From UHGV virus genome UHGV-0092003: a stretch of 64,000 nt of DNA; one strand, written 5' to 3'. Of this stretch, positions 12,801 through 38,719 are shown piece by piece (position 1 is the stretch's first letter; each line of letters opens with the position of its first letter). The translations under genes were made by a program, and so were the position numbers. Source of the DNA: a virus. Below the pieces are notes generated by a model. It was given only the letters and a program-made list of their open reading frames with translations, had not been told where the DNA came from and searched no databases.

Positions 12801-13091
12801 TGCAAAGATTCGGTCTTGACGAACACAGCGAAGAAGACATCATTTGATACCTTCATGCTATGCCATATATTGACTCTGCCAATGACTTCATCATAGATTG
12901 TCAAGGTGGTGAATCCCCCTGAGCGGTGGGGCGACCAGTCAGTTACAGTGATCTGTAAATGCAGCGCGAGCCATGTCGGCTGGGACATGCTCACCGGGAG
13001 GCACCCGGCACCACAAGCGTTACTAAGCAAATTCGTAGCAGAATTAACCCCTTGTTAACCCTGTTATGTTTAACAAATCCAATTTCAACCC

Positions 13092-35926: not shown

Positions 35927-36559
35927 ATGAACGGATCTCAGAAAATTAAAAAACGTGAGCGCGACGGCAACTTGCGCGATCTCTGGAGAACGCCTCTGTG
36001 GTTATTTCGCGCCATTGAGGTTTATCTGGGAGTGAAGTTTCAGGTTGATGTCGCGTGCAACAAAGATAACGCGATCCTGCCTGATTTTATAGGCGTCGAG
36101 CGTGACGCGCTGAAGTCGAGCTGGGGAGAGCCTGGTACTGTGGCATTCCTGAACCCGCCCTATTCCAAAATCAAACCATGGATAGACGCCGCGGCGCGTG
36201 AACAAGCCAATGGCGTTACGACCGTCATGCTTGTCCCTCAGTCCCTCGACACTCAGTGGTATCTGGACGTTAAGCGCAGCGCGAATCAGACCGTGCTTAT
36301 TGTTGGCGGTCGCGTCGCTTTCATGGAGCCAGACACAGCGCTGGGATTGGTTGAAGTACGCGAGAATACTGGCGGCAGCATGTTGCTGGTCTTCCGGGGC
36401 TTCTGTGGCGCTGCTGGACACCAGACGACGGAGATCGACATCGGCGTGATGAAATTGTTGGGTGGCTATGATCCACTAACGGCGAAACGGAAGCCACGTA
36501 AGAAGCCTGTTAAGAAAGCATCTCCACCCCTTAATAAAAAGACTTTAAAAGCGCTTTAA
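35927..36559 (+). CDS. phage Dam-family N6-adenine DNA methyltransferase
   Basis: LWRTPLWLFRAIEVY and VAFLNPPYSKIKPWI (motif IV NPPY). The short overall architecture fits the small phage Dam family. ATG 35927 is preferred to the track start at 35906. Confidence 0.75.
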   Translation: MNGSQKIKKRERDGNLRDLWRTPLWLFRAIEVYLGVKFQVDVACNKDNAILPDFIGVERDALKSSWGEPGTVAFLNPPYSKIKPWIDAAAREQANGVTTVMLVPQSLDTQWYLDVKRSANQTVLIVGGRVAFMEPDTALGLVEVRENTGGSMLLVFRGFCGAAGHQTTEIDIGVMKLLGGYDPLTAKRKPRKKPVKKASPPLNKKTLKAL

Positions 36560-36575
36560 ATAATATACAGAGCCA

Positions 36576-36620
36576 GGCTTATTTAAGAGATTCAGGCACT
36601 TGCGTGCCTTAATCTCTCTT
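36576..36620 (+). terminator. nested-stem rho-independent terminator
   Basis: AAGAGATT-C-AGGCAC-TTGC-GTGCCT-T-AATCTCTC followed by TTTTG. Confidence 0.6.
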
Positions 36621-36715
36621 TTGTCTGGAGTGTATTCAAAAGAACCTCAAACACCAGCTTTGTAGCCTGTTTAATGGCTTTAAGATGGCTTTAACAAAAC
36701 GAAAAGGATCGCAAA

Positions 36716-36940
36716 ATGACTTATGAAACAAACATCGTCGCCCTGGCGGAGAACGAATTTCTGGACAACACTCGGAAGCTGATGGAGAAGCGAGATACGG
36801 CCTTTAGTCTTTATCAATGGGTCGTTGATAGTCTGCGTGAAGGTAAACACACTGAAGAGATTGGGATGCTGGTTGGCGACCTGATTAACTCAAACTTTGC
36901 TCTTGAAGTGCAGCTAAAGGGTCGTGCCGGCGCTCGGTAG
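36716..36940 (+). CDS. hypothetical protein
   Basis: 74 aa. Confidence 0.45.
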   Translation: MTYETNIVALAENEFLDNTRKLMEKRDTAFSLYQWVVDSLREGKHTEEIGMLVGDLINSNFALEVQLKGRAGAR

Positions 36941-36964
36941 TAAGTAACAATTTACTTATGCGAG

Positions 36965-37505
36965 TGTGATATGTATCATTGTCGGGCCACCAATGGTGGC
37001 CCAAAATTTATTAGCAGCCAAGCTAATACAAAATGGCAACGACACCAGTCTCTCGGTGAGAAACGGTCGGGATTGGTGGAGCAGTAAAGAACCTTGAGCA
37101 AACGCTCTTGGGAAGGCCCAGACGGGATTTGTAGCATAGGGTCTGTATTGCCGGTGTGGGCGCGAAGTGGTAACTCGCGTCGGTTGAGGGCAAAAGCTAC
37201 AGGGCTGTGAGACAGGGGGAGCGACTTAGATACCTGACTCACAGAATAAAAGCTCAACCATTAAATTCTAAGAGGAACCTATACGAGTAAGCCCTTTCCA
37301 CGAGAATGAGAGTGCTTACCAGTAGGGGGCGTTGCTGGACTTACACCTAACTTTTTCGATTAAAAAGACACTGATTCGACCGAACCGTTAAACAATATGG
37401 GTCGAAGTTTTTTTAACGAAATTGTTAGGATAAGTATGTCCAGCAGCCCCTACCGAGAGACATTAAAACATCAGCGAAACGGCGAAACAGAGAAGCGATA
37501 AAGCG
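36965..37505 (+). ncRNA. candidate structured non-coding RNA (unknown class)
   Basis: ~540 nt with no ORF. Starts after an ATAAGTAA-type palindrome and a GGGCCACC-AAT-GGTGGCCC hairpin. Several perfect stems: CTGTGAG/CTCACAG, CTTTTT/AAAAAG, TTCGACC/GGTCGAA. Long-range pairing of 37318-37340 with 37441-37462. Confidence 0.3.
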
Positions 37506-37523
37506 ACGAACTGGAAAGGCAAA

Positions 37524-38093
37524 ATGGCGAAGAAAACAACAAAACAAAAAGGCATCAAATACAACCGGCAGAAACATGTCTCTGACAAAAACATGGCGAC
37601 AAAATTTGACCCGCGCTTGAAAGAGGTTGTTCTGTATACGGACGGATCATGCCTGAAGAACCCAGGCGGTGCTGGTGGAGTTGCGGCCATCGTTCGTTTT
37701 GGCGAACACCATAAAACAGTTCAAGAAGGTTTTCGCTCCACAACCAATAACCGCATGGAAATGCTCGCTGCGATCCGAGGGTTGGATCTACTTAATCAAA
37801 AATGCAACGTGACGATCTACACGGATAGCCAGTACCTAATTAATGGCATTTCGCTGTGGATTAAAGGTTGGAAAAAGCGCGGCTGGAAGCTGGCGAACGG
37901 TGAGCGAGTTAAAAATGTGGATCTCTGGCAGGAATTGGATGCGGCGGTGTCCGGTCATCGTGTCCGTTGGTGTTGGGTCAAAGGCCATGATGGAAACCCA
38001 GACAATGAGCTATGCGACATGATGGCGCGATCGGCCGCTGAATCACCGACGATGGTTGATCGTATTTACGAATCAATTTCTGCCTATAATTGA
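37524..38093 (+). CDS. rnhA: ribonuclease HI
   Basis: 189 aa. VVLYTDGSCLKNPGGAGGVAAIV, NNRMEMLAAIRGL, IYTDSQYLINGI, WVKGHDGNPDNELCD. These carry the DEDD catalytic residues in canonical order. Confidence 0.85.
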   Translation: MAKKTTKQKGIKYNRQKHVSDKNMATKFDPRLKEVVLYTDGSCLKNPGGAGGVAAIVRFGEHHKTVQEGFRSTTNNRMEMLAAIRGLDLLNQKCNVTIYTDSQYLINGISLWIKGWKKRGWKLANGERVKNVDLWQELDAAVSGHRVRWCWVKGHDGNPDNELCDMMARSAAESPTMVDRIYESISAYN

Positions 38094-38242
38094 TAAGTAA
38101 GTGTTTACTTAACCTTTCGTTTGTTGTATGTTTGATTTGCAAGGATGATGGCGCGGTTAGCGCCTGTCTCAGGGATGAGACGACCTGAAGGCGGCTGAGT
38201 TTTCTCAGCCGCAACTATTTTAAGGCTCCGTTAAGAGGCTTT

Positions 38243-38719
38243 ATGATTAATTTCCTCTCTGATCTTTTTCGAAATAAGCGGTTTGAGCGAAATGTTAGCT
38301 CGACCCTCAGCTTGCTCGAAAGTCGCATCGAAAACCTCAATGAACGAATCCGAGTGCTGGAAAGTACAGTAGTGTCACAGGCAAATACTATCGCCTCTCT
38401 CACGAAGAGCAGTGACTCTACCCCGCGCCCAGACTCGTTCCCCGATAAAAGTATTGCCAATGGAAAACTACCAACGAAAAAGGCTGCAACCGCTGGCGTT
38501 TCTGGTTATCGTACTAGTTCTGATACCTCTCGCCATCGCGCCAGCTACGCAGATGATAGCGCCAGCTATCAGCAAGCCACGCCCAGCGCCGGCCACCACA
38601 ACTCAGGCCACCATCATCACCACCACGACTCCGGCCTGTGCCATAACAGTTTCGGAGACACTGGAGGGTATGACTCTGGATGCTCCGATTCGTCCTTTTC
38701 ATCAGGGTCTTGTGACTAA
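38243..38719 (+). CDS. hypothetical protein with N-terminal coiled coil and His-rich tract
   Basis: 158 aa. Contains HHNSGHHHHHHDSGLCH. Confidence 0.5.
   Translation: MINFLSDLFRNKRFERNVSSTLSLLESRIENLNERIRVLESTVVSQANTIASLTKSSDSTPRPDSFPDKSIANGKLPTKKAATAGVSGYRTSSDTSRHRASYADDSASYQQATPSAGHHNSGHHHHHHDSGLCHNSFGDTGGYDSGCSDSSFSSGSCD

Follow-up and report, generated by a model that had tools for sequence, protein, structure and literature searches.

Large structured noncoding RNAs (ncRNAs) without a known function are, to our knowledge, uncommon, and the intensively studied Enterobacteriaceae have yielded almost none of them. ROOL and GOLLD, two large ornate RNAs with no known biochemical role, occur in phages and prophages of Firmicutes and other bacteria. 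The c4 RNA of P1 and the CI RNA of P4, of about 70–80 nt, arise by processing of a leader, and each has defined targets close by to which it is complementary. In this work, we analyzed a stretch of 64,000 nt from virus genome UHGV-0092003 (hereafter, the window), in which a preliminary description made from the letters alone had placed a highly structured candidate ncRNA of approximately 540 nt between a hypothetical gene and rnhA. The high degree of structure was confirmed by folding and covariation, whereas the length was not, since the element proper spans ~475 nt (36984–37458). It is very probably a real, independent structured RNA gene, with a predicted transcript of its own. We call it type A, and the RNAs in the same slot of related elements types B, B2, and C.

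Host replicon and gene neighborhood

By gene content, the replicon belongs to the SSU5-like phage-plasmids; its host is Klebsiella. It encodes Pol III alpha, a gp32-like SSB, FEN, RecA-like and SbcCD-like proteins, RNR, ThyA, DHFR, Dam methylase, and RNase HI, together with TciA/TciB-like proteins and a Rha/Ant-type gene located 1.9 kb downstream of the RNA element. The Rep3 plasmid initiator is found at 18.3–19.4 kb, 18 kb from the element. The 583-nt interval between the stop codon of a 74-aa ORF and the RNase HI ATG (36941–37523) was, with its flanks, 99.7% identical to the K. pneumoniae plasmid pMB7868_2 (111.6 kb), and all 30 of its PLSDB matches were non-mobilizable Klebsiella plasmids of ~108–113 kb. 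Further type-A copies were present in gut metagenomes, and a DNA similarity search of phage and E. coli genome collections with the interval gave no match. The local order of methylase, 74-aa gene, long gap, and RNase HI is common to SSU5, Cyrano, ST13-OXA48phi12.3, and plasmids of Cronobacter, Citrobacter, and Kluyvera. In the window, the flanks of the element are as follows.

36716–36940 (+): 74-aa gene (phrog_5343), directly 5′ of the element, encoding a predicted two-helix hairpin
36941–36958 (+): palindrome TAAGTAA-CAAT-TTACTTA, the right arm of which gives the –35-like TTTACT
36951–36979 (+): sigma-70-type promoter-like site, TTTACT (36951–36956), 17-nt spacer, TATCAT (36974–36979)
36984–37458 (+): structured ncRNA, type A, ~475 nt, recognized by fold, covariation, and conservation
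37459–37523 (+): variable rnhA 5′UTR with CAGCGAAA repeats, outside the conserved element
37524–38093 (+): RNase HI gene (rnhA), a neighbor and not a component of the element

The linkage of the 74-aa gene with the RNA element holds in all lineages, and this gene is the only constant partner of the element. The AlphaFold model of its product is a two-helix hairpin (pLDDT 80), and searches for a Pfam family, a PADLOC match, or a Foldseek match in PDB returned nothing. The methyltransferase was the sole PADLOC match when the defense or anti-defense context was searched. As for rnhA, RefSeq places its start at 37593. The ATG at 37524 and the Lys-rich N-terminal extension that follows it are conserved in all lineages, and 37524 is therefore the likelier start. 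The 8-nt repeat CAGCGAAA at 37475–37510 in the rnhA 5′UTR occurs in one to three copies among close relatives.

The preliminary description let the element begin after a palindrome. This palindrome is present at 36941–36958, but it is not specific to the RNA, because the motif is repeated at about 17 gene junctions. The pattern ATAAGTAA-N4-TTACTTAT has 19 matches in the window (456–62906) versus 2.2 expected, with copies at, e.g., 975, 3037, 13929, 25438, 30590, 35900, 36942, 38095, 55643, and 61388. The copies are mostly located where two + strand genes meet. The motif contains stop codons in all three frames and is often only 10–30 nt from the next ATG; where a copy is imperfect, G·U is retained on the + strand (4 vs. 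1). A promoter or operator specific to the window RNA was rejected as the function of the motif, given its recurrence and a position often too near the ATG for a promoter. The palindrome may instead be an intercistronic RNA hairpin, i.e., a processing or stabilizing site, or a dispersed operator. Directly after rnhA, another palindrome opens a stretch on the + strand (38095–38225) in which a promoter-like TTTACT-N17-TATGTT precedes three hairpins and then a strong terminator (38191–38212). The fold z of this stretch was –3.8. It may encode a small RNA (~90 nt) or, alternatively, act as a leader/attenuator for the ORF at 38243.

Fold, covariation, and strand of the element

The interval had been described as lacking an ORF. 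It contains only ORFs of 27–43 aa, none of them conserved among relatives, and a test for a type I toxin or small protein found no ORF common to type-A relatives and no encoded hydrophobic peptide. The minimum free energy of the + strand was –205 kcal/mol compared with –155 ± 6.8 kcal/mol in dinucleotide shuffles (z = –7.4). Covariation and an Rfam/Infernal scan had been named as checks on the candidate. For the former, relatives from viral contigs, metagenomes, genomes, and assembled runs were gathered by means of the 74-aa protein encoded upstream, giving a type-A alignment of 15 sequences, 14 of them distinct. The consensus fold of the distinct relatives has 157 pairs in 19 helices, and 97.2% of its cells are paired. 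Compensatory changes were observed in 15 pairs, versus 0–4 in slid controls, and none of 500 column shuffles reached the observed pair counts. In the main alignment the compensations fall in P1, H6, H10, H13, H17, H18, and H19. Further ones, in P1, H4, H5, H6, and H17, come from more divergent relatives, whose protein identity is 74%. Helices H4, H5, H9, H11, and H16 barely vary in the main alignment, where covariation is silent and speaks neither for nor against them.

The strand on which selection acts can be read from one-sided changes. Unselected transitions are expected to produce G·U and A·C equally. On the + strand, 235 G·U cells were counted against 11 A·C cells, and 30 columns alternate Watson–Crick with G·U compared with 5 that alternate with A·C. 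This excess indicates selection on the + strand RNA, and not on DNA palindromes or on a – strand transcript. Judged from the aligned sequences, selection maintains the fold at the level of the + strand RNA. Moreover, the core (37025–37322) is the best-conserved DNA of its 2.2-kb neighborhood, with a mean pairwise identity of 0.85–0.95, compared with 0.65–0.81 for the upstream genes and 0.72–0.91 for rnhA. The proposal of a novel phage-encoded structured RNA was thus borne out by the covariation and the G·U strand bias, and no Rfam family matched it.

These data also bear on the reading that the locus is not an RNA gene, but a DNA or ssDNA element (origin, pac, or ssi), a degenerate coding remnant, or an mRNA that encodes a small protein or a type I toxin. 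The – strand folds better than shuffles as well (z = –6.05), and a 44-aa ORF is annotated in the type-B counterpart. However, the compensations come with the strong bias for G·U over A·C on the + strand, no ORF is conserved (relatives have frameshifted or truncated forms of the type-B one, CYRAN_81, and type A has no equivalent), and a hydrophobic peptide is not encoded. We consider that such an element hardly comes into question. The structured RNA has the following anatomy.

36984–37002 (+): P1, 5′ clamp hairpin GGGCCACC-AAU-GGUGGCCC; two pairs compensated; variant GGGCUAU/AUAGCCC
37043–37078 (+): H4, hairpin, nearly invariant; one U-A to C-G compensation in L156/L159
37081–37151 (+): H5, multi-branch domain with sub-hairpins; compensations GAGC/GCUC and AGGCCC/GGGUCU
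37152–37156 (+): H9 5′ strand, CGGUG; predicted to pair with 37451–37455; pairs invariant
37159–37181 (+): H10, hairpin with conserved loop UGGUA(A/G); three pairs compensated
37182–37259 (+): H11–H14 domain with CUGUGAG/CUCACAG (37205–37211/37238–37244) and a conserved G-rich loop; three pairs of helix 13 compensated
37266–37326 (+): H15, small hairpin with a Shine–Dalgarno-like AAGAGGAA, and H16, hairpin; both nearly invariant
37327–37450 (+): H17–H19, long 3′ hairpin of 124 nt; four pairs of helices 17–19 compensated
37451–37455 (+): H9 3′ strand, UACCG; predicted partner of 37152–37156

A short variable hairpin lies between P1 and H4, and H9 is predicted to enclose the 3′ half of the RNA (H10, H11–H14, H15, H16, and H17–H19). 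Most of the helices originally picked out by eye belong to this fold, namely GGGCCACC/GGTGGCCC (36984–37002), CTGTGAG/CTCACAG in the H11–H14 domain, and TTCGACC/GGTCGAA (37375–37381/37400–37406). The long-range pairing also exists, at 37319–37340/37438–37455, although it had been placed 1–3 nt off. The local helix CTTTTT/AAAAAG, present in the sequence, was not recovered in the consensus fold, where these bases pair instead with CGAAAUU and the U7 run.

Promoter and 3′ end

Among relatives the –10 box is kept as TAT(C/G)AT and the spacer varies. The promoter matches the consensus at 9 of 12 positions, and its –35 lies inside the palindrome that recurs at junctions too short for promoters. The –10 box precedes the covarying hairpin P1 by ~7 nt, and the transcription start is predicted from the sequence near 36986, at the foot of P1. 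The ends of the RNA would be protected by P1 on the 5′ side and by the long 3′ hairpin on the other.

The apex of H17–H19 is the UUCGACC/GGUCGAA stem followed by U7 (37408–37414), which pairs with an upstream A-tract, and this stem and U7 (37375–37414) resemble a terminator. No canonical or strong terminator was found from 37458 to the rnhA ATG. The compensations in H17/H18, beyond the U-run, argue that at least some transcripts reach ~37458. With no terminator past this position, the 3′ end would arise either by termination at the internal stem and U7 (~37414) or, after read-through, by processing within the ~37-bp H17/H18 duplex. In copies bearing rnhA, the transcript may simply run on into this gene. 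Two recombinants, L007 and L015, show no difference from the window as far as alignment column 355 (~37329); past it, the entire 3′ hairpin is that of another lineage, and so are the downstream genes. The 3′ hairpin moves as a unit.

Search for known RNA families

The whole window was scanned with Rfam 15 (4227 models, including RNase P, tmRNA, 6S, CsrB, C4, ROOL, GOLLD, OLE, HEARO, group I/II introns, and riboswitches). At gathering thresholds the only match was STnc100, a gammaproteobacterial sRNA, at 12875–13071 (+; 74.8 bits, E = 4e-14), just 3′ of the RecA-like gene. At E ≤ 10, the region 36850–37600 gave six chance-level matches, the best with 24 bits against a threshold of 90 bits, so that no family, and no known leader, matched the interval. 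ARAGORN found no tRNA or tmRNA gene in the whole window. The earlier failure to fit tmRNA, RNase P, 6S, or tRNA signatures thus agrees with both programs. Rfam likewise gave nothing on the type-B element, and the literature on ncRNAs or sRNAs of SSU5, pHCM2, or phage-plasmids held no description of the window RNA.

Sister RNAs in the same slot

Elements of the SSU5/pHCM2/Cyrano type have an annotated gap of 437–583 nt in the same slot, which contains the type-B RNA. Among 5426 complete E. coli genomes, 232 carry type B, nearly always on a plasmid of ~110 kb, and no ncRNA is annotated there. Type B has an extended –10 box (TGnTAnAAT) and a 5′ hairpin that covaries, followed by ~400 nt of almost invariant core and by a hairpin with a U-run. 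Its identity is 0.88–0.99 in the core, 0.77–0.88 upstream, and 0.5–0.78 in rnhA. The fold has 99% of cells paired, and 10 pairs are compensated. Types B2 (L163) and C (L161 and L162) have islands of sequence in common with B, and strong covariation was seen across the three, with helix variants such as CCUAAG/CUUAGG, CAGAGA/UCUCUG, CUGUAA/UUACAG, and UUCAGA/UCUGAG. Beside the hairpin and U-run of type B, two copies of the direct repeat CUCACUUCGUUCG surround GAGGUGA and would permit mutually exclusive pairings. Across B, B2, and C (L003 2440–2880, L005 2370–2830, and L161–L163), an invariant CUGG...ACCAGCG pair suggests a pseudoknot with P2, and a (CACG)n tract follows the U-run. An additional Cyrano-type locus in a contig of SRR8137545 (L164), in which every C reads T, is probably an assembly of bisulfite-converted reads and not a natural variant; it was discarded.

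The type-B/C layout is like that of the window RNA, i.e., a –10 box, a 5′ clamp hairpin, a multi-domain fold of ~450 nt, and a hairpin with a U-run. Both RNAs follow the homologous 74-aa gene, and both outlive the loss of rnhA.

Expression data are available for type B through CYRAN_81, an annotated 44-aa "hypothetical protein" that lies wholly inside the element. The study of E. coli LF82 counted it among the morons, 12 times above the local background (PMC9928086). Its log2 FPKM was 6.8–10.35 over five conditions, highest in macrophages at 6 h (PMC9928086, Table 1/S1 Table), while under all five conditions the flanking CYRAN_80, the 74-aa gene, had 3.1–5.8 and RNase H 2.6–5.0 (PMC9928086). 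From these values, the type-B RNA is 8–40 times more abundant than either flanking gene. In lysogens it is expressed at about the level of the repressor gene. L004 and L025 have a broken CYRAN_81 reading frame, in L081 and L082 the frame is truncated, and type A has no equivalent. Since the ORF is broken in relatives, the LF82 signal indicates a discrete, abundant noncoding transcript.

Independence from rnhA

Similarity to the window stops near 37474 in L007, L008, L015, L019, L020, and L021. The element is kept, rnhA is absent, and a convergent ORF lies downstream in L007, L008, L015, L019, and L021. In the annotated records L007 and L008, it is a convergent 148-aa ORF that stands in the place of rnhA, a convergent 269-aa ORF follows the type-B element of L012, and other lineages have further different downstream neighbors. 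The position just 3′ of the RNA is thus a gene-replacement hotspot, and the RNase H neighbor is incidental to the element. The suspicion that its adjacency was coincidental is upheld, since relatives keep the element while other, convergent genes replace rnhA. The occupants by lineage are RNase HI, the convergent 148-aa protein (phrog_2320; L007 3812–4258, –), the convergent 269-aa Cys-rich protein (L012 2391–3200, –), which is HNH-like as judged by eye alone, and other small ORFs (e.g., L161 3030–3581 and L163 2864–3469).

This arrangement is relevant to the idea that the element is a cis-acting 5′ leader of rnhA and the genes beyond, acting as an attenuator, a riboswitch-like sensor, or in processive antitermination, with the stem and U7 as a regulated terminator. 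The element does lie directly upstream of rnhA and on its strand, with no strong terminator between 37458 and the ATG; it contains the terminator-like stem and U7 (37375–37414), and the type-B repeat allows mutually exclusive pairings by the hairpin and U-run. A leader, however, should always be upstream of and co-oriented with its gene, and the downstream gene is convergent beside intact elements of both types (L007 and L008 for type A, L012 for type B), on which ground the rnhA leader was rejected. Furthermore, the type-B RNA is 8–40 times as abundant as the RNase H mRNA, 475 nt far exceeds known leaders, and Rfam cis-regulatory families gave no match. We therefore regard a leader function of any of these kinds as unlikely.

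The proximity of RNase HI also brings to mind a primer like ColE1 RNA II, or an R-loop origin transcript, for lytic replication, which RNase HI would process with the 74-aa protein as a Rop-like partner. A structured RNA of ~500 nt with G-rich tracts is indeed situated between the gene of a two-helix 74-aa protein and that of RNase HI, inside a cluster for replication and nucleotide metabolism (Pol III alpha, gp32-like SSB, FEN, RNR, and ThyA). Yet the phage rnhA is dispensable for the retention of the element, although host RNase HI could substitute for it. A simple scan of 36400–38400 found no promoter-like site on the – strand, P1 lacks a – strand T-run, GC skew does not switch at 37 kb, and the Rep3 initiator lies 18 kb away. 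In addition, the counterpart RNA reaches high levels in the non-replicating lysogenic state, and the resemblance to Rop is that of a generic helical hairpin with no PDB match. A primer function thus appears very improbable.

Relationship between types A and B/C

No match between type A and type B was found with nhmmer. Their global alignment scored only z = 2.3 above shuffles, and the local alignment was not significant against shuffles. The covariance model R1 (type-A H4–H5) gave a best in-element match of 7.5 bits (E = 3.3) on the B/C loci, and model R2 (the B/C central domain) gave no match in 36984–37460 of the window. These comparisons revealed neither alignable sequence nor a common covariance-model domain by which A and B/C would form one family. 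The 74-aa protein of L161 is 66% identical to that of the window and 52% to that of type B, and the RNA of this locus is of the B/C type, while in type-A relatives with 74% protein identity the core still closely resembles that of the window. The pairing of a window-like protein with a B/C RNA in L161 looks like replacement or extreme divergence of type A, and not like gradual drift. Accordingly, the expression in LF82 supports the window RNA only indirectly.

The flanking proteins are 50–66% identical between lineages, and the RNA is near-fixed within a lineage and unalignable between lineages. This discontinuity makes immunity or incompatibility the next most attractive role after a trans-acting RNA: an RNA like P1 c4 or P4 CI, made in lysogeny, would pair with phage transcripts (e.g., those of Rha/Ant) and keep lytic genes off. 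The expression of the type-B counterpart at about the repressor gene level in lysogens and the Rha/Ant-type gene 1.9 kb downstream are also in its favor. However, k-mer complementarity across the 64-kb window revealed no complement of ≥14 nt to the RNA, whereby a simple antisense regulator of window genes was also rejected. Moreover, the RNA is about six times as long as c4 or CI, the Rfam C4 model did not match, and the Rha gene itself has been replaced in L007 and L008. An immunity RNA is accordingly quite improbable.

Proposed role and significance

We propose that the element is a stand-alone, stable RNA gene of ~475 nt whose product acts in trans. Transcription would start near 36986, and the RNA would accumulate in the plasmid (lysogenic) state, where it could serve as a protein-binding scaffold or as part of an RNP, with the co-inherited 74-aa helical-hairpin protein as a possible partner. 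Its role would lie in maintenance or host interaction, and not in rnhA expression. A trans-acting RNA or RNP best fits the protected ends, the many invariant loops and junctions, the linkage with the 74-aa gene, and the abundance of the counterpart in lysogens. Taken as a blend of its parts, the whole explanation seems to us slightly on the probable side; for the trans-acting RNP or scaffold as the mode of action, our preference is a tentative one and falls short of even.

The type-A host elements, phage-plasmids of the pKpn/SSU5-like kind, are common in clinical Klebsiella, type B reaches ~4% of complete E. coli genomes, and neither RNA is annotated in Klebsiella or E. coli. Their hosts are genetically tractable. 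The annotation at this position should be an ncRNA, and not a "hypothetical protein" such as CYRAN_81 or an over-extended rnhA. The apparent swap of unrelated ornate RNAs in one slot hints that the function needs "some" large RNA, which would be unusual. It is conceivable, although we would not yet rely on it, that the slot after the 74-aa gene is reserved for a large ornate RNA and has recruited at least two structurally unrelated classes (A and B/C). If so, each RNA would be a new large class of the Enterobacteriaceae on the scale of OLE, ROOL, and GOLLD, and each would act as an RNP in plasmid-state carriage, with the type-B RNA induced inside macrophages.

Comparison with known systems

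With P1 c4 and P4 CI, the window RNA has in common that it is borne by a phage-plasmid, that it would be made in lysogeny, and that its sequence is lineage-specific. It differs from them in its ~475 nt, in the lack of a detectable target, and in not matching the C4 model. Similar to ColE1 RNA II, it is a structured, predicted + strand transcript of ~500 nt in a replicon, and it adjoins the genes of RNase HI and of a small helical-hairpin protein, as in the RNA II/Rop system. Unlike RNA II, it shows no sequence similarity and no antisense promoter of the RNA I type, the Rep3 gene is 18 kb off, and rnhA is dispensable for the retention of the element. From ROOL, GOLLD, and OLE it is distinguished by the Rfam models, which give nothing against it at E ≤ 10, and by its occurrence in phage-plasmids of Enterobacteriaceae and not beside tRNA genes. 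What it has in common with these RNAs is that it exceeds 400 nt, is multi-domain, noncoding, and highly conserved, and is carried on a phage-type element. The type-A RNA is apparently an undescribed family of a known general kind, that of large conserved ncRNAs on phage-type elements.
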